64,000 nucleotides of DNA from an uncultured Rhodospirillales bacterium (GTDB taxonomy: Bacteria; Pseudomonadota; Alphaproteobacteria; Acetobacterales; Acetobacteraceae), in NCBI GenBank assembly GCA_903864895.1, contig CAIPHQ010000167.1:277-64276 (forward strand). The letters are read 5' to 3'. Shown piece after piece: positions 11,977 to 39,435 of the stretch (the first letter of the stretch is position 1; every line of letters begins with the position of its first letter). The notes below the pieces were generated by a model. It did not search any database, was not told the DNA's origin, and worked only from the letters and a program-made list of their open reading frames with translations. The position numbers and the translations under genes were made by a program.

Positions 11977-13086
11977 GTGGCAGAAGGCTTCGTGAAGCGC
12001 GACTACTCGCTGGTTGGGCCGCTGAATGCGCGGGCGGTGGAACTCGGGCTGGCGAATGCGGAGTGGTACCGCACCCCCATCCCGCGCGACCGCATGAAGC
12101 AGTTGATGAAACGCAGCGATGCCCCGGCCACGCGCGACACGCTGCTGTGGATCGGCCTGCTGATCGCCACCGGCGGTCTGGGCGCCTATTTCTGGCCAAC
12201 ATGGTGGTGCGTGCCGTTCTTTTTCGTCTACGGCGTGCTGTATGGCTCGGCCGGGGACAGCCGCTGGCATGAATGCGGCCACGGCACCGCGTTCAAGACG
12301 CAGTGGAAGAACGACGCGGTCTATCAGCTGGCCTGCTTCTTCATGATCCGCAACCCGACCGTCTGGCGCTGGAGCCACTCGCGCCACCACACGGACACCA
12401 TCATCGTCGGCCGCGACCCGGAGATCATCACGCCGCGCCCGCCGGATGTGCAGTCTCTGCTGCTGAACATCTTCGGCATTCTGGACGTGCCGCGCGGTCT
12501 GGCCATGATGTGCCGTTACGCGATGGGCACGCTGACGCCCGCCGAGCAGGATTTCATCCCCGGCAGCGAGCGCGGCAAGGTGGTGGGCACCGCGCGGGTG
12601 TGGCTGGCAATCTATCTGGCGGTCGTGGTGGCCTGCGTGTGGATGCAGTCGATCCTGCCGCTGATGCTGATCGGCCTGCCGCGCATGTATGGCGCGTGGC
12701 ATCACATTCTGACCGGCGTGACGCAGCATATCGGGCTGGCCGAGGACGTGCTGGACCACCGGCTGAACTGCCGCACGGTGTACATGAACCCGTTTAGCCG
12801 CTTTGTGTACTGGAACATGAACTACCACGTGGAACACCACATGTTCCCGATGGTCCCGTACCACGCGCTGCCGGACCTGCATCGTGAGATGCTGAAGGAT
12901 TGCCCGAAGCCCTACAGCAGCTTCTTCGATGCGTATCGCGAGATCATCCCCGCCCTGATCCATCAGTTGCGCGACCCGGCGTTCTTCGTGCATCGCAGCC
13001 TGCCCTCCACCGCCCGCCCGGCGCAGCCCGGACCGTTGGCCGAGGAACTCGGCTTCGACGGGATGCACGCCGCCCACGCCGACTGA
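11977..13086 (+). CDS. membrane fatty-acid-desaturase-family (di-iron, His-box) protein
   Basis: His boxes HECGHG, HSRHH and HVEHH. Hydrophobic helices. GTG 11977 preceded by GGGAGGA (369 aa). The ORF is open from 11839, but that extension is Arg/Pro-rich. Confidence 0.75.
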   Translation: MAEGFVKRDYSLVGPLNARAVELGLANAEWYRTPIPRDRMKQLMKRSDAPATRDTLLWIGLLIATGGLGAYFWPTWWCVPFFFVYGVLYGSAGDSRWHECGHGTAFKTQWKNDAVYQLACFFMIRNPTVWRWSHSRHHTDTIIVGRDPEIITPRPPDVQSLLLNIFGILDVPRGLAMMCRYAMGTLTPAEQDFIPGSERGKVVGTARVWLAIYLAVVVACVWMQSILPLMLIGLPRMYGAWHHILTGVTQHIGLAEDVLDHRLNCRTVYMNPFSRFVYWNMNYHVEHHMFPMVPYHALPDLHREMLKDCPKPYSSFFDAYREIIPALIHQLRDPAFFVHRSLPSTARPAQPGPLAEELGFDGMHAAHAD

Positions 13087-13108: not shown

Positions 13109-14020
13109 ATGCTGGCGAAACTGGGGATCGCGCCGATTGCGTGGTCCAATGATGACCTGCCGGAACTCGGCGGCGAGACGACGCTGGAAACCTGCCTGCG
13201 TGAGAGTGCGGCGGCCGGGTTCACCGGGGTGGAAACCGGTGGCAAATTCCCGAAAACGGCCGCCGGACTGCGCCCGAAACTGGCGGAATTCGGCCTGAAC
13301 CTCGCCTCCGGCTGGTTTTCCGGCACGGTGCTGGACGCGCCGGACGATCTGGCCGCCGAGAAGGACCGGGTGGCACCGCAACTGGCGCTGTTCCGCGAAC
13401 TCGGGGCTGCCTGTCTGGCCTATGGCGAGACGGCGGGCACCATCCAGAACGTGCGCAGCGCACCGCTGGCCACGCGGCGGCGGCTGTCCGAAGACCAGAT
13501 CAAGGTCTATGGCCGCCGCCTGACCCGCTTTGCCGAGCATTGCGCGGATGCTGGGATGCCGCTGGGCTTTCATCACCACATGGCGACCGCCATCGAGACC
13601 GAGCAAGACCTCGACCTGCTGATGCAGCACACCGGCCCGGCGGTGGGGCTGCTGTACGACGCGGGGCACATGCGCTTTGCGGGCGGTGACGTGCTGCGGG
13701 TGATCGGCAAGCACGGCAAGCGCATCATCCACGCACACATGAAGGACGTACGCGGCCCGGTCATCGCCGGGCTGGACCGCAGCAAGCAGTCGTTTCTGGA
13801 TGCGGTGCTGGAGGGCGCCTTCACCGTGCCGGGCGACGGGGCCATCGACTTCATGGCCGTGGTGCAACGGCTGGCCGATGTGGGCTACGAAGGCTGGTTC
13901 GTGGTGGAGGCCGAGCAGGACCCGGCCAAGGCCCCGCCTGCCGAATACGCCGGGATCGGCTATCGCACGCTGACCGCAGCACTCGCCAAGGCCGGATACA
14001 CGCTCGCCCCGCGCGGCTAG
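13109..14020 (+). CDS. iolE: myo-inosose-2 dehydratase (IolE)-like TIM-barrel protein
   Basis: LGIAPIAWSNDDLPELG, GFHHHMATAIETEQDLDLLM, GLLYDAGHM, HAHMKDVR and FTVPGDGAIDF..GWFVVEAEQDP are collinear with B. subtilis IolE as I remember it. Confidence 0.75.
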   Translation: MLAKLGIAPIAWSNDDLPELGGETTLETCLRESAAAGFTGVETGGKFPKTAAGLRPKLAEFGLNLASGWFSGTVLDAPDDLAAEKDRVAPQLALFRELGAACLAYGETAGTIQNVRSAPLATRRRLSEDQIKVYGRRLTRFAEHCADAGMPLGFHHHMATAIETEQDLDLLMQHTGPAVGLLYDAGHMRFAGGDVLRVIGKHGKRIIHAHMKDVRGPVIAGLDRSKQSFLDAVLEGAFTVPGDGAIDFMAVVQRLADVGYEGWFVVEAEQDPAKAPPAEYAGIGYRTLTAALAKAGYTLAPRG

Positions 14021-32986: not shown

Positions 32987-35200
32987 TCAGGCGGCCTTGC
33001 GCGCAGCCGCCTGCGGCCCGATCAGCCCGCCCAATGCTGCCGCCGTGGCTGCGCCGGCGGGAAACTGCACGTGCAGCACGCCGTCGCGCGCATTCACCAC
33101 CCGGCCCGGCAAGGGCTGGGCAGACAGCCCGGCCACGGTGGTTTCCTGCCCCACCGGCAACCCGGCGTCGCTGGCAATGGCCGCCCCCCCGGCGGAGATA
33201 TTGCGCACCCGCCCCGCTTGCGGCGCGCCGCCCGGCACGGTCAGCGTGACGGCGCGGTCGATCTCGAAGCGCTGATGCGCCCGGCGCTCATTGGCGTCGG
33301 CCATGTCGCGCAGGAACCCCTCGATTTCCTCACGCAGCTTTTGCGCCTGTGCCGACATGCCGCTGGCCGATTGCAGCAGGGATTGCGCCGACTCGCCGGT
33401 GGCGGTGGCTTCGGCGCGCACGGTGGCGATGCCGTCCGACACCGCGCCGGTGCAGCGCGCCGATTCATGCACGCTGCGGCTGATCTCCCCGGTGGCGGCG
33501 TGCTGTTCAGACACGGCGGCGGCGATGGCGCTGCTGCTGGATTCCACGTTGCGCACCAGATCGGCCATGCCGCGAATGATCCGCGCCGCGTCGGCGGCGG
33601 ATTTGCCCACCGCGCCCAGCCGCCCGGCAATGTCGCTGGTGGCGTTGGCAGTCTGGGTGGCCAGCGTTTTCACCTCCTGCGCCACCACGGCGAAGCCCTT
33701 CCCGGCCTCACCGGCACGGGCGGCCTCGATGGTGGCGTTCAGCGCCAGCAGATTGGTCTGCCGGGCAATGCCGCCGATGAAATCCACCACCTGTGAGGTG
33801 CCCGCCATCACGCTGGTCAGGTCGTTCACCAGGGCGCGCGCCATCTCCGCCTGCTCCACCACGCCTTGTGTGGCGCGGGCGGCGGTTTCCACCTGGGCGG
33901 CGATTTCGCGGCTGGAGGCGGACAACTGCTCGGTCGCCGCCGCCACGGTGCCCGCGTTCTGGGTGGCGACGGCCGCACTGGATTCCACCACGCCCGATTG
34001 CGCCGTCGTGCGCTCGGCCCGCCCGGCCAGTTCACTGGCCACGCCGCGCAACGCCAGCGCCTCGGCAGCCACGCGTTGCAACTGACCGCTGATGGCAGCG
34101 TGAAACGCCCGCGTCAGCCGGTCGGAGGCTTCCTGCCGCGTGCGGAAGCCCTCGGCGGCGCGCGCCTCGGCCTCCTGCCGCGCCCGGTTTTCCAGCAGGG
34201 CGGTGCGAAACACCGCCAGCGCACGGGCCAGATCGGCCAGTTCAGCAGCACCCTGGCCCACCGGCACCGGCGTATCCAGATTGCCGCTGGCCAGTTCCGC
34301 CGTGGTCCGGGTCAGGCCGGTCAGCGGACGGATCACCGCACGCCGCGCCACCAGCAGCACGGCGGCGGCGGCCAGCAGGAACAGCGCAAAGCTGACCACG
34401 AAATTGCGCAGCTTGGCGGTTTCCAGCCCCTCCACCCGCGCGGCCAGCAAATGTTCCAGTTCGCTCGCCGCCAGTGCTGCGAATTGCGCCGTGGCGGTCA
34501 GCATGGGCCGCGCATCCGCCTTGCCGCCCGGGGTTTGCAGGGCGGCCATCAGCGCTTCGGCCCGCTGGCGCAACGCCGCCGCCGGATCCTGCAACGCCAC
34601 GGTCAGGCGGCCATCGGCGTTGTAATGCAGGGCCGAGCCCAGTGACGCGCCGAGCGAGTCCAGCACGCTGCGGAACCCGCCGATCTTTTCCGGCAGCCCG
34701 GTCCCGGCGGCCCCGCCGCCCATGTCCGCCGTGCGATCCAGCAAGTCAGGAAGGCGGTTCAGCGCCGCGTCGGTCAGGTAATAACTGTCCAGCACGTTAT
34801 CGAGAATGAGGTTGGAGTGGTCGCCCACCAGCCCGATCAGGGCGCGCAGTTCCGCCTGCGCGGCCGCCCGGTCCGGCCCGGCCAGCGCGCGGGCGGCTTT
34901 GTCGAAGCCGGTGGCAACGTCCAGCCGCGCTGCTTCCCCGGCCAGTTGCGTGTGCAGAGTGTGCAGCTTGGGAGCTGGAAGTGGCGTGCCGTCCAGCACC
35001 GCCATGTTCATGTCCGCCTGCACCACCAGCAGCCCGCGCAGCAGCCGCACCCCGTCCAGTTCGCGGCTGGCGAAGCGGATATCGGCGTTTTCCTGTGCGG
35101 TCAGCAGCCAGATCAGGTAGCCGACCGGAAACAGGAACAACAGCGCCGCCAGACCCAGTCGCGGGCCGGCGCGCAAGGACACTCTGCCGAACTCTGCCAT
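32987..35200 (-). CDS. methyl-accepting chemotaxis protein with C-terminal PilZ domain
   Basis: ATG 35200 (MAEFGRVSL..). Two TM segments flank a ~260-aa periplasmic region. HAMP domain, then MCP signalling hairpin (..[28 protein letters not shown]..). C-terminal RRAHQRF...[11 protein letters not shown] matches PilZ RxxxR / (D/N)xSxxG. The upstream 288 codons of the listed ORF are spurious. Confidence 0.85.
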
Positions 35201-35292: not shown

Positions 35293-36426
35293 TCAGAACG
35301 GCATGAACTGCCAGCCGCCCGCGCGGTCGGCCAGCCACCCCAGCGCCAGCAGCGCCGCCGCGCCGGACGCGCCGGGCAGCAGCGCGCGGCGGGCCAGCCC
35401 GGCGTGGCCCATCAGCCAGCCTACGGGCAGCAGCAGCGCGGCCAGCGCCAGTTGGGCGGCTTCCAGCCCCAGATTGAACGCCAGCAGCGCCACGGCCAGG
35501 GCTCCGGGCGGCAGATGCAGCGGCCCCAGCGTGGCGGCGTAGCCGAAGCCGTGGATCAGCCCGAACCCGAACGCCAGCGCCCAGCGCGGGCCGGGCAGAA
35601 ACGGGCGGATATTGTCCAGCGCCGTCAACAAAATGGTCAGCGCGATGGCACCGTCCACCATCGCGGGCGGAAGACTCAGCACGCCCAGCACGGCGCTGCC
35701 CAACGTCAGGGCGTGCGCGGCGGTGAAGGCGCTGAACACGACGGCCGCCGACCGGAACGCTGCCCACCCGCCAGCACCGCCACCCGGCCCGCCGCGCCAC
35801 AGCAGCGCAGGCAGCAGCAGCATGGCGGCGAACAGCAGATGGTCCGGCCCGGTCAGCAGATGCGCCGCCCCGGTCAGAAAGAACCGCCCGAACGAACCGG
35901 CCAGCCCCGCCTGCCCGTCGAACGTGGCGGCGGGGCGGGCGGGGGAGAGTGCGAGTGCCTGCACCGCACCATCCACGCTCACCCGCAGCAGGCCGCGATG
36001 CAGTGGATCGCGGTCGAACAGCAGCCCGTAACGCACGCCAATCTGGCGCGGCGCGGCCGGGCACGCCGCTGTGAAGCGCAGTACGGCGTAGCCGCCATCG
36101 TTCAGCCGGTCGGCCAGCAGGGCCACCTTGCCGGGCGGGCAGGCCGCGCCATCGGCCTCCAGCCGCAGCCGGGCCAGTGCGTAGGCTTCGATGTCCGCCT
36201 GATGCGCCTGCACGGCGCCCCAGGTGAGTGCGCCGCTGCCCGTATCATCCAGCCCCACCACGTCATCCAGATCGCGCAAGGCGATGGACCACTGCACATC
36301 CAGCTTTGGCCCGTCTGCCGTGATGTCCAGATAGGCCGTGCTTGCGCTGTGCCCCCAAGCAGGGTGGATCCAGGCGGGGTTGGCCAGCAACAGCAGCAGG
36401 CACAGCGTCAGCAGGTGGCGCATCAT
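35293..36426 (-). CDS. HupE/UreJ-family membrane protein with ~190-aa N-terminal periplasmic extension
   Basis: Signal peptide [26 protein letters not shown]. The C-terminal half has HupE-like helices ([41 protein letters not shown]). Confidence 0.7.
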
Positions 36427-36436
36427 GGCGGCCTCC

Positions 36437-37666
36437 TCAGTTGGCGGCGTGACGGGCGGGGGCGAGCAGGCGGGTCAGGGCGGCGTCCTCGACATGATTG
36501 GTCCGCATCCAGCCCAGCGCGGCCTCGGCCTGCTCCGGTGCCCCGGCGGCGATGGCGGCTTCGATCAGGATGCGGGCGTCGGCGGGTTCGCGCTGCACTA
36601 GCCAGTTGGCCTGCGCCAGTGCCAGCGCCTCGGCAGGGCGGTGCAGCAGGGCGAGCGTGAAGCGGGCCTCCTCACGCCGGTGCACCGTCTCGCCGCGCAG
36701 GCGGGCCGTGTCGAAGCGGGCCTGCAAGTCGGCGGCGTGCGTGTCAAATTCCGCCAGCCCCAGCACCTGTTCGGCCAGCGCCAGCCGCAGCAGCAGCGGA
36801 TCGTTGCAGGTGAAGCCGCGTAGCAGGGCGGCAGCCTCGGCGGCACGATGCTGATCGAGCAGGAAATCGGCGTAGGCGCCGAGCAGGTAGCTGTCCTGCG
36901 GGTCGAGGCGCAGGGCGGCGGCGAAGTGCGCTTCGGCCGAAGCCGCATCGTCCAGCCGTACGGCGATTTCGGCGGCCAGCGTTTCAGCCCACAGCCGCAC
37001 CGGCACGGCATCCTCCGCCGCGTTGCGCAAGGCCACGCCCAGCGCCGCCTGCGCCAGCCGCGCATGTCCGGTCAGGCTGCTGACGGAAGCGGTGCAGATC
37101 ATCGATGCTGCGCCAGTGTCCAGCAGCGCCAGCTTGCCGCAATCCTCCAGCGCCGCCGGATAGGCGGCCTGCACGGTCTCGATACTGGCCCGCGTCAGAT
37201 AGGCCTGCGGCGTGCGCGGGGCGGCGGCCAGCAGGCGGGCGAGTGCGGCGCGCGCCCCGGCAAAATCATGCAGGCTCTGCCGCAGCACCGCGCGCAACAG
37301 CAGCACTTGGGGCGGCGTGTCCGGCCCATCAGGCCAGTGCGCCAGCGCCGCCTCGGCGCGGCCAAGATAGCGCGGATCAGCTTGCCGGCGGCCGATGGCC
37401 ATGTCCTGCGCCGCGGCTTGCAGGGCGAGGTCCAGATTATCCGGGCTGGCGGCGAGTTGCCGGTGCAAGCGCCGCGCGTCGCGGGCGGCGCTGTCGCCGG
37501 AGTCCGGGCGCTGCTCCAGCACCACCGCGTCGCTGGCGGGCACGAACGGGGTGGCACGGCACAGCCCGGGCAGCACCAGTGTGGCGGCAAGTACCAGCAG
37601 GGCGGGCAGGGGCCGGCGGCGCGGGGAAACCCCCGCGCCGCACTTGCCATGTGTGTCAGTGGTCAT
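36437..37666 (-). CDS. secreted TPR-like repeat protein
   Basis: Leader ..LPALLVLAATLVLPGLCRA. Ala/Leu-rich helical repeats (..AEAHFAAALRLDPQDSYLLGAYADFLL..). Its stop is 10 nt from the HupE-like start. Confidence 0.65.
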   Translation of the reverse strand: MTTDTHGKCGAGVSPRRRPLPALLVLAATLVLPGLCRATPFVPASDAVVLEQRPDSGDSAARDARRLHRQLAASPDNLDLALQAAAQDMAIGRRQADPRYLGRAEAALAHWPDGPDTPPQVLLLRAVLRQSLHDFAGARAALARLLAAAPRTPQAYLTRASIETVQAAYPAALEDCGKLALLDTGAASMICTASVSSLTGHARLAQAALGVALRNAAEDAVPVRLWAETLAAEIAVRLDDAASAEAHFAAALRLDPQDSYLLGAYADFLLDQHRAAEAAALLRGFTCNDPLLLRLALAEQVLGLAEFDTHAADLQARFDTARLRGETVHRREEARFTLALLHRPAEALALAQANWLVQREPADARILIEAAIAAGAPEQAEAALGWMRTNHVEDAALTRLLAPARHAAN

Positions 37667-37689
37667 GGCTGGCCTCCGTTACTGCCGGA

Positions 37690-39126
37690 TCAGGGCGAAC
37701 CGGCGAGCGGGGTGCGGATGTAGGGGAACGCGCCGTCGAAATAGCTCGCGTCCACATACGCACCGTCGGTGAAGTCCAGCCCGCCGGACGGGGCGTCCGC
37801 AGGGCTGCCGAACAGGCCCAGCGTGTACAGCCGCCCCATCGCCGCGCGCAGCGTGATATCCACCACGTCGTCGCCGGGGCGGCGGCCGTTGGGATAGCCC
37901 GCGTTGTCGCCGCCGATCACGCCCAGCCGGTTTTGCGTGGCGGCCGGGGTGGGCGGAATGCTGGTGTTCAGCCGCAGTTCCTCGCACGGCGTGCTCAGAT
38001 GCTGCGGTGCCGTCACGCCGGCGATGCCGGTCAGGAACACGCTCACCAGATCCTGCCGGGGGAACGCGGTCGGTGCCTTCACGCCCGCGCCGCCGAACAG
38101 AAGTTCCAGAATGGCCGGAAACGTCGGGTTGGTGACGTAGGTGGCAAACTGCGCGTCGTTGAACGGCACGCTGCTGTTCCAGCGGTCCTTGTCCTTCAGC
38201 CCGATCACCACTTCATTGACCAGCGGGCTGCCGAGGCGGGACTTCTGGTGTAGCGTGGTCGAGCCGTCGCTGGTCTTGATCATCTTGGACGCGGTGGTCC
38301 AGCCGCCGATCACCGGGTCGGTGCCGCTGGTCAGGCAGGCGGTGGGCACTTCCAGGATCATGGAGGTCACGTTGTCCCCGGCCAGCGTGTCCTGCGTTGA
38401 GTTGGAGTACTCATCGCCGATCGGGTTGGCGATGTTCACCAGATCGAAGGTCTGGCCCAGATTGACCACGAACGGGTCCTTGCGCTGGCCCGCAAACACG
38501 CGGCCCGCGCCACAGCCGGGAATGTTGATGTTGGCGATCATCGCCGAGGCATAGGCGGCATAGTTCGGCAGGGTCTTGTTGCCGATATTGTCGATGGGCT
38601 TGGAGAACACCGGCGAGCCGGTGGCAGAATTGATCAGCGGCGTGGCGCCGCTTTGCGTGATCATGGTTACCGTATAGGTTTCCAGCACGTTGGCGTTGGC
38701 ATTGTCGGTTGGGTCGCCACCGCGCCCGATCTGGCCGATTTCCAGCAACGGCTCGGCCACCTTCTTGCCGCCGATGTTCAGCTTCAGGTTGCGCTGGGTA
38801 TTGGTGAACTGAAACCGGAAGGTGATTTGCGGCAGCCCGGTTCCGGCGTTGTCGATATTGATGTCATAGACCGCTTCCGGGTCCATCAGGAAGTAGTTTG
38901 GGCCGCCGCCGGGAACCTGAAACGGCTGATAGTTGGCAATCAGCGTGGTGTAGTTGCTGCGCCCCGGCTCATAGCTGCGGAACATGTAGAAGTCGGTGCC
39001 GTCGATTCGCGGCGTGCCGGCCACCAGCGGGGCTTCGCGATGGCTAGATGCTTGCACATCCGAAATTGTGGCCATCGAAAGCACGCCAGCCGCCGCCAGT
39101 GTGGCGGCCAATCCTGTGTATCGCAT
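37690..39126 (-). CDS. DUF4331 family secreted protein
   Basis: GGAGGG RBS precedes ATG 39126. Signal peptide MRYTGLAATLAAAGVLSMATISDVQA. The mature N-terminus SSHREAPLVAGTPRIDGTDFYMFRSYEP...GGPNYF..DPEAVYDINIDN is the DUF4331 hallmark. Confidence 0.8.
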   Translation of the reverse strand: MRYTGLAATLAAAGVLSMATISDVQASSHREAPLVAGTPRIDGTDFYMFRSYEPGRSNYTTLIANYQPFQVPGGGPNYFLMDPEAVYDINIDNAGTGLPQITFRFQFTNTQRNLKLNIGGKKVAEPLLEIGQIGRGGDPTDNANANVLETYTVTMITQSGATPLINSATGSPVFSKPIDNIGNKTLPNYAAYASAMIANINIPGCGAGRVFAGQRKDPFVVNLGQTFDLVNIANPIGDEYSNSTQDTLAGDNVTSMILEVPTACLTSGTDPVIGGWTTASKMIKTSDGSTTLHQKSRLGSPLVNEVVIGLKDKDRWNSSVPFNDAQFATYVTNPTFPAILELLFGGAGVKAPTAFPRQDLVSVFLTGIAGVTAPQHLSTPCEELRLNTSIPPTPAATQNRLGVIGGDNAGYPNGRRPGDDVVDITLRAAMGRLYTLGLFGSPADAPSGGLDFTDGAYVDASYFDGAFPYIRTPLAGSP

Positions 39127-39236
39127 AAGTAATCCCTCCGCACGATCGGTTGGTGCCTCGCTGTCGGAGCGGGCATCGGGGATACCGGCCGTGCGGCAGG
39201 GCGGATGCAGCCTGCGGCGAATTTTTTTGGGGCGGT

Positions 39237-39377
39237 TCAGTGGCAGGCGTGGGGGTGCCAATAGCACCATCCGGGGGATGGTCCGGGGCGGACGGGTACC
39301 ACGATGCAGCCGCCCAAAGTGGCGGCCATGGCGAGCAGGCACAGCGGGGCGGCGAACCAGCGCAGGTGGTAGGGCAT
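39237..39377 (-). CDS. 46-aa lipoprotein with Cys/His-rich C-terminus
   Basis: GGAGG lies 5 nt upstream of the ATG. Lipobox LGGC in MPYHLRWFAAPLCLLAMAATLGGC. The mature ~25-aa peptide ends GWCYWHPHACH (2 Cys and 3 His in the last 9 residues). Confidence 0.55.
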   Translation of the reverse strand: MPYHLRWFAAPLCLLAMAATLGGCIVVPVRPGPSPGWCYWHPHACH

Positions 39378-39397
39378 GGGGCCTCCGTTCGGGCAAG

Positions 39398-39435
39398 GTG
39401 ATTGCGGCGACAGCCCTGCCGTACGCCGCAATCAC
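39398..39435. promoter_or_regulatory. perfect 12-bp inverted repeat upstream of the small lipoprotein gene
   Basis: gtgattgcggcg (39398-39409), 14 nt, then cgccgcaatcac (39424-39435). It lies between the stop of the upstream MCP gene and the RBS of the lipoprotein gene, with no U-tract after it on the minus strand. Confidence 0.4.

Follow-up and report, generated by a model that had tools for sequence, protein, structure and literature searches.

What do four closely spaced genes for envelope proteins, lying between two chemoreceptor genes of an uncultured Rhodospirillales bacterium, have to do with one another? The window analyzed here, a stretch of 64,000 nucleotides, encodes all four on the minus strand: a 46-aa mini-lipoprotein (39,237–39,377), a 478-aa DUF4331 protein (37,690–39,126), a 409-aa exported TPR-like protein (36,437–37,666), and a HupE/UreJ-2 permease fused to an N-terminal domain (35,293–36,426). 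The ORF coordinates reproduce the successive gaps of 110, 23, and 10 nt given in the preliminary description, which had proposed that the four genes form an undescribed periplasmic module for metal capture or delivery. Comparative evidence supports such a module for the DUF4331, TPR, and HupE-type products and excludes the lipoprotein. Searches with family profiles, which had been suggested as a check, matched DUF4331 and HupE_UreJ_2 strongly and TPR weakly. Signal peptides were assigned by eye and from the conservation of cleavage sites.

We used tblastn to locate the partner genes in the 62 genome loci with sufficient flanking DNA (informative loci). The order DUF4331, TPR, HupE fusion was complete in 45 of these, a TPR-family partner was immediately downstream of DUF4331 in 49, and 13 loci carried DUF4331 without a permease. 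Loci bearing the cassette span the Alpha-, Beta-, and Gammaproteobacteria, Verrucomicrobiota, Nitrospirota, and Melainabacteria. Reverse look-ups starting from the HupE fusion arrived at the same cassette in three of three cases. The expected co-occurrence of the three families was thus found, and from its gene order the DUF4331–TPR–HupE cassette appears to be an operon conserved across many phyla. The searchable literature gave no account of such a cassette. Neither hydrogenase nor urease genes turned up within ~10 kb of the window permease. Chemoreceptor genes do occur on both sides, but this bracketing is local synteny, shared with a close relative (L083) and absent at other loci.

The upstream limit of the unit is suggested by a promoter motif. 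The dominant dyad found de novo upstream of DUF4331 was CATCC-N16-CGTA (31 of 81 loci, compared with at most four in shuffled sequences), and a relaxed form precedes the gene in at least 49 of the 81. The dyad matches the published ECF18 consensus (−35 xGCATCC, −10 xxCGTATx; PMC13492112, Table 4) and represents an ECF18-type, promoter-like element. Its counterpart in the window, TGCATCC-N16-GGTAT (39,182–39,209, minus strand), is located in the gap that separates the lipoprotein gene from DUF4331, ~56 nt ahead of the start codon of the latter, and is kept in the alignment with L083. Because the lipoprotein gene is upstream of this conserved element, it probably falls outside the DUF4331 transcription unit.

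The mini-lipoprotein nevertheless looks like a real gene. It has a GGAGG 4 nt ahead of its ATG, is called in the source assemblies, and encodes the lipobox (LGGC) and the GWCYWHPHACH terminus noted earlier, with a mature part of 23 residues. The L083 orthologue keeps the lipobox and GWCYWHPxAC despite divergence of the DNA; this conserved part includes one His and a pair of Cys that may form a disulphide, whereas the histidines of PHACH are replaced (PGACR in L083). The lipoprotein adjoins DUF4331 only in close relatives of the window (L001, L083/L084). The peptide was absent from 80 of 80 genome loci, and the 31 metagenome loci with the motif had no DUF4331 in the recovered DNA, with some versions of the lipoprotein in unrelated contexts. 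One could still argue that all four genes cooperate and that the lipopeptide, with its Cys and His, is a membrane-anchored metallochaperone for DUF4331 and the HupE fusion: the gene is a near neighbor on the same strand, and the adjacency is preserved in a relative with 75% identity in DUF4331. Moreover, a different small lipoprotein is found within the cassette in most other phyla, which suggests that a lipoprotein partner is common and that the one in the window could be a non-orthologous replacement. However, given the promoter downstream of the gene and the loss of the PHACH histidines, we regard this reading as very improbable, and the four-gene version is largely refuted by the distribution of the family. 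The mini-lipoprotein represents an unannotated family of its own, made up of small secreted proteins with GWCYWHPxAC at the C-terminus, and lies outside the cassette.

The first gene of the cassette proper was correctly recognized from its SSHREAP N-terminus. The DUF4331 ORF matches PF14224 over residues 27–473 (profile positions 1–421, E 5e-136), and the profile begins exactly at SSHREAP, right after an AxA signal-peptidase site. Cleavage of the Sec signal peptide is predicted between VQA and SSHREAP, leaving Ser-Ser-His as the predicted mature N-terminus. ASSHREAP is invariant in alignments of 21 and of 76 homologues, in which His29 is the sole invariant His, and among 113 diverse representatives, 108 show the pattern X-X-H-x-[EDS]-[AGS]-[PS] after the signal peptide, preceded by A or G (position −1). 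This N-terminus is predicted to be an ATCUN-type Cu(II)/Ni(II) motif. Like those of serum albumin and histatin-5, it combines X-X-His, a non-Pro residue at position 2, and a flexible tail, but it is carried by a large exported bacterial protein with a new fold, and here both cleavage and binding are predictions. In the AF2 model (pTM 0.85) the N-terminal tail is disordered and is followed by a confidently folded body of ~440 aa with no fold match among PDB structures.

This body raises a first alternative. Across the 76 sequences ~80 positions are invariant, among them many Asp, Glu, Arg, and Asn, a conserved Cys pair, and charged motifs that include GQRKDPF, SRLGxPLVNE, and DNAGYPNGRRPGDDVVD, and the Asp, Glu, Arg, and Asn residues could equally form an active site. 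DUF4331 might then protect against stress, or act in the periplasm or outside the cell as an enzyme that depends on a metal, within an ECF18 (SigK/RskA-like) envelope-stress regulon. The TPR protein and the HupE fusion would provide maturation or cofactor supply as NosL and NosDFY do for NosZ, and the operon would not serve nutrient uptake. A body of this size without a fold relative exceeds the needs of a simple chelating tail, and the 13 loci without a permease also fit such a role. Yet DUF4331 resembles no enzyme family by either sequence or fold.

The permease matches HupE_UreJ_2 (PF13795, E 3.4e-36) over residues 182–339. It is laid out (AF2 pLDDT 89.6) as a signal peptide, a periplasmic beta-sandwich at ~26–170, and a HupE/UreJ-2 membrane domain at ~175–377; the N-terminal extension recognized earlier is ~150 aa long. 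The His start proposed for it was borne out: the predicted mature N-terminus, after cleavage between AWG and HSAS, is a His that is invariant in 62 homologues. Also invariant are C96/C122, H143-R144, H189...D195-H196, H238, D271-N272, and H292 in addition to this H26, and the membrane domain retains H189xxxGxD195-H196 plus other His, Asp, and Asn residues. Foldseek matched the N-domain with a probability of 1.00 to ZrgA (8F1B), Ang-1 (9GCE), and PA4063 (7AMX). ZrgA and PA4063 were the best structural matches (target-normalized TM-scores 0.60–0.66), with E 5e-6 and TM 0.66 for Zn-bound ZrgA compared with E 9e-6 for Cu-bound Ang-1; the closest fold matches are Zn binders. ZrgA (V. cholerae) and PA4063 (P. 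aeruginosa) are likewise periplasmic metal-binding beta-sandwiches, but each stands alone, with no permease attached, and is encoded in an ABC transporter operon under Zur control; a search of the window gave no Zur box.

The fusion itself is not new. The combination of Ang-1 and HupE/UreJ-2 domains was described in October 2025 under the name "anglerase" (Franco Cairo et al., Nat Commun, PMC12537917); DUF4331 appears only twice in the neighborhood counts of that study and nowhere in its text. RbAng-1a uses His1 to bind Cu2+ (Kd 74 nM) and Ni2+ (Kd 220 nM), and a role in supplying the permease has been proposed for it (PMC12537917). The Ang-1/ZrgA-like fold and the invariant mature His suggest that the window permease is of the anglerase type, sharing with RbAng-1a (9GCE) the signal peptide, His1, the beta-sandwich, a flexible linker, and the PF13795 domain. 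It differs in belonging to a subfamily that has a conserved Cys pair and a loop resembling an EF hand and that is tied to DUF4331 and TPR; its N-domain has no HMMER-detectable relation to RbAng-1a and is 18% identical to it in the structural alignment. The membrane domain is also related to the HupE/UreJ Ni/Co permeases, with conserved His/Asp motifs, although it matched PF13795 rather than classical HupE and has the periplasmic domain added. R. leguminosarum HupE is implicated in Ni uptake, and HupE-type permeases are known to import into the cytoplasm (reference 26 of PMC12537917).

The TPR assignment of the third product was supported by a match to TPR_19 (E 1.7e-6) and weaker matches to further TPR models. 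The protein belongs to one particular orthologous family that accompanies DUF4331. Among 51 orthologues, D97, Q130, H133, W226, D267, R324, R331, Q358, and D363 are invariant, H329 and C176 are each present in 50, and C191 in 46.

Regulation can be read in two ways. The same promoter motif precedes DUF4331, the neighboring receptor gene, and the neighboring ECF sigma gene. A SigK-like sigma factor, which scores under the NCBIfam SigK model cut-off, adjoins the cassette in 14 loci and an RskA-domain anti-sigma factor in 8. The consensus promoter and these neighbors recall the SigK/RskA-type ECF18/19 regulons (M. tuberculosis SigK, C. metallidurans RpoP, P. putida RpoT), but the reported members of those are mpt70/mpt83 and solvent efflux genes, with DUF4331 not among them. 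ECF18/RskA control has been linked to redox and fits a stress response as well as nutrient limitation. Control of most loci by an ECF family with redox or unknown signals, and not by Fur, Zur, or NikR, favors the enzyme reading. An importer, however, would not metallate a periplasmic enzyme, and genes typical of uptake recur nearby; we therefore consider that reading unlikely.

Those neighbors occur at a minority of loci. Elsewhere the core gains a small acidic lipoprotein, a TonB-dependent outer-membrane receptor, an ECF sigma/RskA pair, or NikR, none of which the window has. Seventeen loci have a TonB-dependent receptor, and L077 has a TonB-like protein; NikR is near the cassette in 4 loci and NicO in 2. 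DUF4198, which binds nickel in vitro (PMC12537917), is encoded immediately downstream of DUF4331 in 5 loci with neither TPR nor HupE. In L052, the receptor gene has an ECF-type promoter that coincides in part with a perfect NikR box (GTATGA-N15-TCATAC). These genes resemble the TonB/NikR/DUF4198 nickel uptake loci, but they are absent from the window, and DUF4331 and TPR are not described in such loci. The window has no sigma or anti-sigma gene, NikR, receptor, riboswitch, or NikR, Fur, Zur, or CueR box, so the metal assignment draws on this minority of other loci, where the occasional neighbors point to metal uptake, with nickel favored.

Could the module instead buffer or detoxify excess periplasmic Cu or Ni, with DUF4331 and the Ang-1-like domain as sequestering agents that metal or oxidative stress would induce through an ECF sigma factor? 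The very tight binding of Cu(II) at ATCUN sites suits sequestration, and metal-stress responses are commonly driven by ECF sigma factors. The related DUF6702 fold has been read as a "sequesterase" (PMC12537917), and the window N-domain matches DUF6702 weakly (E 0.35); by inspection, L010 has a PCuAC-like gene close to NikR and NicO. On the other hand, the cassette neighborhoods show no recurrent efflux pump, multicopper oxidase, or CopA-type ATPase, and both TonB-dependent receptors and HupE/NicO permeases serve import. With abundant nickel, NikR represses uptake genes, and its operator on the L052 receptor promoter follows import logic. Detoxification is thus doubtful, and somewhat less probable than the enzyme reading.

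We give roughly even chances to the interpretation that the DUF4331, TPR, and permease genes form an envelope operon for acquiring a divalent transition metal under an ECF18-type (SigK/RpoP-like) promoter, with Ni(II) the likeliest substrate, Cu(II) plausible, and Zn possible. DUF4331 would be exported and its signal peptide cleaved, and the freed Ser-Ser-His on its flexible tail would chelate Cu(II) or Ni(II) in ATCUN fashion. The TPR protein may act as a periplasmic adaptor or scaffold. The metal could then be handed to the permease's tethered Ang-1/ZrgA-like domain, whose N-terminal His would receive it as a "mono-histidine brace"; this domain would swing above the channel mouth and load the conserved membrane His/Asp sites, and import would follow. 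An ATCUN-type DUF4331 protein, a helper, and a permease with its own metal-catching domain would most likely constitute an undescribed route of Ni/Cu uptake.

The four minus-strand genes that a preliminary description had grouped as an envelope cluster proved correct in their particulars (reading frames, gaps, DUF4331 match, HupE domain, and chemoreceptors on both sides), and the gene calls of the source metagenome assemblies match all four. The first, at 39237-39377, encodes a 46-residue mini-lipoprotein with a GGAGG Shine-Dalgarno sequence, a lipobox (TLGG-C24), and a mature part of 23 residues ending in GWCYWHPHACH. It is followed after 110 nt by the gene for a 478-residue DUF4331 protein (37690-39126), after a further 23 nt by a gene for a 409-residue TPR protein with an N-terminal hydrophobic leader (36437-37666), and after another 10 nt by a gene for a 377-residue HupE fusion (35293-36426). 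Profile searches matched the DUF4331 protein end to end (PF14224, 454.7 bits against a gathering cut-off of 27, E 5e-136, profile positions 1-421 of 421) and placed a HupE_UreJ_2 domain at residues 182-339 of the fusion (PF13795, 124.7 bits against a cut-off of 24.5). The TPR matches of the 409-residue protein were weak. Methyl-accepting chemoreceptor genes flank the region on either side. The downstream one (approximately 32987-35200, minus strand; 737 residues in the source annotation) combines HAMP and MCPsignal domains with a PilZ domain at its C-terminus, an architecture known from Tlp1 of Azospirillum, a c-di-GMP-binding chemoreceptor. The nearest genome relatives of the window are Acetobacteraceae such as Lichenicoccus.

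To evaluate conservation of the cluster, we scanned a single genome from each species using an alignment of DUF4331, which gave 80 loci from Alpha-, Beta-, and Gammaproteobacteria, Acidobacteriota, Verrucomicrobiota, Planctomycetota, Nitrospirota, and Melainabacteria. Searches of these loci with the proteins of the window (tblastn) recovered the order DUF4331, TPR protein, HupE fusion on a single strand. Among the 62 informative loci, defined by at least 3.2 kb of sequence downstream of DUF4331, both partners were found in 45, the TPR gene only in 4, and neither in 13, which bears out the proposed association of the three genes. Three HupE-fusion homologues picked solely for their long contigs were all in the same cassette. 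The TPR protein belongs to a specific orthologous family in which H133 is invariant (51 orthologues), H329 is present in 50 of the 51, a Cys pair is nearly invariant, and several acidic and Arg residues are invariant; it had no match among PDB sequences. About 41 of the 80 loci encode a different small lipoprotein between the DUF4331 and TPR genes, as a fourth cassette member (L006-L082; for example L018 9427-9672 and L117 8434-8679). This lipoprotein is 70-100 residues long and combines a lipobox (LAACGG, for instance) with a Pro-rich linker and an acidic C-terminal end (..SPEDAEP..ID....T.PEDTEPV). No Pfam family covers it, it is annotated as a hypothetical protein, and neither the window nor its Acetobacteraceae relatives gave a homologue.

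Two plasmid-borne loci have unusual surroundings. In the 32.5-kb plasmid of Jannaschia sp. W003 (L118, 7001-15602), the DUF4331 gene and a small hypothetical one adjoin the type II secretion genes gspD, I, J, K, and N, a hint that certain DUF4331 proteins may be exported past the periplasm. In plasmid pHP-187 of Marinobacter adhaerens HP15 (L117, 1-6521), genes annotated as alkaline phosphatase D family, metallophosphoesterase, DUF3299, and PKD-domain proteins lie upstream of the cassette and may link it to metal-dependent phosphatases or Zrg-like systems.

Many of the DUF4331 loci also share a promoter motif. Gapped-dyad counting in the 300 nt upstream of DUF4331 returned one dominant dyad, CATCC-N16-CGTA, in 31 of 81 loci, while any shuffled dyad reached at most four. 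The relaxed form TG(C/A)ATCC-N15-17-(C/G)GTA was found in 49 of 81 loci from several phyla, in most cases 30-130 nt upstream of the start codon. In its strict form the motif has 51 occurrences across 1.14 Mb of locus DNA; 28 sites were assigned to DUF4331, two to an adjacent TonB-dependent receptor gene, and two to an adjacent ECF sigma gene, and many of the other 19 likewise lie just upstream of DUF4331 or a sigma gene. The ECF18 consensus tabulated for C. metallidurans RpoP has a -35 element xGCATCC and a -10 element xxCGTATx (PMC13492112). Our motif fits this promoter class (-35 GCATCC, -10 CGTAT, spacing of about 16 nt), and the window carries a promoter-like element of this type, TGCATCC-N16-GGTAT (39182-39209, minus strand), about 56 nt before the DUF4331 start, with a -10 that begins with G, not C. 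Apart from this element, the window has a single CATCC-N16-SGTA match (13726-13750, plus strand), which is probably not a promoter, since it lies inside a 303-residue coding region and 0.42 such matches per window are expected by chance.

In other loci, sigma and RskA anti-sigma genes adjoin the cassette (14 and 8 loci, respectively). The sigma factor is SigK-like, scoring under the cut-off of the NCBIfam SigK model, and the anti-sigma factor carries an RskA_C domain; tblastn matched no homologue of either in the 64-kb window. According to published work, what induces the ECF18/19 SigK/RskA systems is not known (PMC7509140, PMC7826278). Consensus scans upstream of DUF4331 for Fur, Zur, NikR, CueR, Irr, and CopR sites did not rise above shuffles, and the window itself is without a Fur, Zur, NikR, or CueR box. 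A riboswitch scan of the window and 8 loci was empty, so these sequences hold no B12 or NiCo riboswitch. The scan for sigma-70 promoters and terminators across the operon was uninformative.

The promoter-like site in the window, which is conserved in the alignment with L083, lies downstream of the mini-lipoprotein stop codon, and this bears on the place of the mini-lipoprotein in the cluster. The peptide had no tblastn match in the 80 genome loci and stands beside DUF4331 only in close relatives of the window, namely a near-identical contig (L001) and L083/L084. The preliminary description had counted it as one of four components of a possible metal capture or delivery module; its distribution and the promoter position argue against a four-component version with the lipopeptide as a chaperone, which we consider very improbable. 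In the window, TLGG-C24 at the end of the signal peptide was taken as a lipobox (pattern [LVI][ASTVI][GAS]C), and the variant LSA-C occurs in the orthologue or family members from L083, L087, and L102. The peptide of L083/L084 (at 5731-5874 in L083) reads MTTFLRRSAAALGLMLLAASLSACIIEERGPGRPGGGWCYWHPGACR, so that the conserved part comprises the lipobox and GWCYWHPxAC only.

Protein homology searches with the mini-lipoprotein returned its own cluster alone, and it was a DNA-pattern scan that exposed a wider family. Scanning metagenomes for DNA coding for exactly GWCYWHPxAC yielded 31 loci from soil and peat (L086-L116), where by our rough estimate chance matches would number well below one. All 31 encode small secreted proteins with a C-terminal end of ...GRGWCYWHPYACY... 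or alike, and most members of this GWCYWHP[YG]AC family are rich in Gly, Trp, and Tyr (...GYGRGWCYWHPYACYR). Two of the 31 (L087 and L102) are lipoprotein versions, and the first of these sits in what by inspection is an apparent exosortase/glycosyltransferase locus. DUF4331 was found in none of these metagenome stretches, most of which span just 1-10 kb, and no Pfam or NCBIfam model covers the family. Its two conserved Cys residues, seven residues apart, suggest a disulphide loop. The 46-residue reading frame was also considered as a RiPP or methanobactin-like precursor; gene calls over some 10 kb around it comprise no RiPP maturation enzymes.

DUF4331 is a large family, with 6277 clusters at 50% identity for E up to 1e-3 and 1141 for E up to 1e-30. 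The AF2 model of the protein from the window (pTM 0.85) is confident except for residues 1-38, and had no significant fold match among solved structures (best probability 0.21); searches of PDB sequences gave no match, and permissive Pfam thresholds gave no further family. The Pfam profile starts at S27 of VQA/SSHREAP, and H29 within SSHREAP is the sole invariant His. Among 113 diverse, N-terminally complete representatives, X-X-H-x-[EDS]-[AGS]-[PS] directly follows the signal peptide in 108, with the tripeptide SSH in 100, and the preceding residue is Ala in 88 and Gly in 10. Ala or Gly at this position is as expected for signal peptidase I. The motif and the residue before it together predict a mature N-terminus of NH2-Ser-Ser-His on a flexible tail. 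NH2-X-X-His is the sequence definition of an ATCUN site for Cu(II) or Ni(II), and this pattern (His at position 3, non-Pro at position 2) is family-wide in DUF4331, its free N-terminus resting on predicted cleavage. A different account of the same cassette would make DUF4331 an enzyme or a stress protein that the TPR protein and the HupE fusion mature; we think this unlikely.

The HupE fusion can be compared with a characterized class of proteins. Its first approximately 170 residues match no Pfam family, and the AF2 model (pLDDT 89.6) shows a beta-sandwich at about residues 26-170 and, after it, a helical membrane domain with conserved His, Asp, and Asn residues in the predicted helices. In Foldseek searches of the PDB the sandwich matched zinc-bound ZrgA of V. 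cholerae (8F1B; probability 1.00, E 5e-6, TM 0.66), PA4063 of P. aeruginosa (7AMX; probability 1.00), and the Ang-1 structure 9GCE (probability 1.00, E 9.3e-6, target-normalised TM-score 0.54). The last was published by Franco Cairo et al. (2025; PMC12537917), who named proteins that join an Ang-1 or Ang-2 domain to a HupE/UreJ-2 permease anglerases, described a His1 mono-histidine brace with a Kd of 74 nM for Cu2+ and 220 nM for Ni2+, and proposed that the tethered domain catches metal and hands it to the permease. Their neighbourhood analysis yielded mostly unknown proteins; DUF4331 appears twice in the source data and never in the text.

The HupE fusion shares with anglerases its architecture, an Ig-like beta-sandwich N-terminal to PF13795, and a predicted His1: at AWG/HSAS the first mature residue would be H26, which is invariant in 62 sequences with Ala or Gly at -1. 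It is a divergent member of this kind, with no detectable sequence relation to RbAng-1a: against PDB sequences, among which 9GCE should be, neither phmmer nor profile searches gave an Ang-1 match at E up to 10. We therefore treat its N-terminal domain, judged on sequence, as a distinct subfamily of the Ang-1 fold, set apart by a conserved Cys pair, an H143-R144 motif, and an EF-hand-like loop. The canonical loop consensus of the subfamily is LDxDGDGAITWGE, and the only PDB sequence match of the domain is the EF-hand protein calsensin (E 0.2). In the protein from the window the loop is degenerate (residues 59-72; 36246-36287, minus strand), and any Ca2+ site may therefore be lost there. A variant cassette in L030 (9565-13436) consists of DUF4331, a canonical TPR protein, a 571-residue NicO-type fusion, and a second NicO-like gene. 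The permease domain of the fusion occupies residues 300-561, and the region before it appears to start with His after the signal peptide (AFA/HPMGNF). The tethered-domain idea seems to recur on another permease family.

Neighbouring genes in other loci favour uptake, of nickel in particular. NikR is encoded next to the cassette in four loci (L121, L010, L052, L031), and NicO permease genes occur in L010 and L030. In a Solimonas metagenome-assembled genome (L052), nikR is transcribed divergently from a TonB-dependent receptor gene whose promoter, CATCC-N16-CGTA, has its -10 element overlapped by a perfect NikR operator, GTATGA-N15-TCATAC (12575-12620). An ECF sigma factor and NikR appear to control this receptor gene jointly; the perfect box was found only here, with a degenerate form in L121. 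DUF4198 lies directly 3' of DUF4331 in five loci that are without the TPR and HupE genes, and DUF4198 binds nickel in vitro (PMC12537917). TonB-dependent receptors are encoded in 17 of the 80 loci and a TonB-like protein in L077, but as the receptors had only generic NCBIfam and PDB matches, their subtype is uninformative about the metal. The window itself has no such informative neighbour: it holds neither nikR nor the operator GTATGA-N15-16-TCATAC, NicO and DUF4198 are likewise missing, and gene calls out to some 10 kb from the cassette include no TonB-dependent receptor. Copper is plausible because Ang-1 prefers it and ATCUN sites bind Cu(II) best, and zinc is also possible given that the best fold matches are zinc-binding proteins. 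A module that sequesters or detoxifies metal rather than importing it would run against the neighbours that favour uptake, and we find it somewhat less probable than the enzyme or stress-protein account.

The best-supported reading, in which our confidence is about even, is a metal-acquisition relay expressed from an ECF18-type promoter. DUF4331 would capture metal through its predicted N-terminal ATCUN site, the TPR protein would act as an adaptor between DUF4331 and the tethered Ang-1-like domain, and this domain followed by the HupE/UreJ-2 channel would form the last stage. More tentatively, DUF4331 could be an exported Ni(II)/Cu(II) scavenger of new fold that, with its TPR partner, feeds anglerase-type permeases and, where present, TonB-dependent receptors in a widespread and unrecognised metal-acquisition pathway.

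Periplasmic metal capture feeding a permease is a known kind of system; its largest component here, DUF4331, is uncharacterised in function and structure. The literature we searched has no mention of DUF4331 in main text, nor did we find in it the cassette of DUF4331, TPR protein (with or without the acidic lipoprotein), and anglerase, the family-wide ATCUN-type N-terminus, or the ECF18-type promoter. A large family with no assigned function or solved structure is now tied to a permease class characterized in 2025, a specific TPR partner, and one sigma-factor promoter. Nickel and copper supply matters to soil and water bacteria for urease, hydrogenase, Ni-SOD, N2O reductase, and methane oxidation. 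If the ATCUN prediction is true, bacteria make widespread use of this site for metal acquisition, and the "N-terminal histidine" search strategy would widen from His at position 1 to position 3. The cassette may also offer a physiological handle on ECF18/RskA signalling: if the scavenger proposal is true, the near-universal ECF18-type promoter of DUF4331 would suggest that at least some members of the SigK/RskA (ECF18/19) family respond to metal availability.
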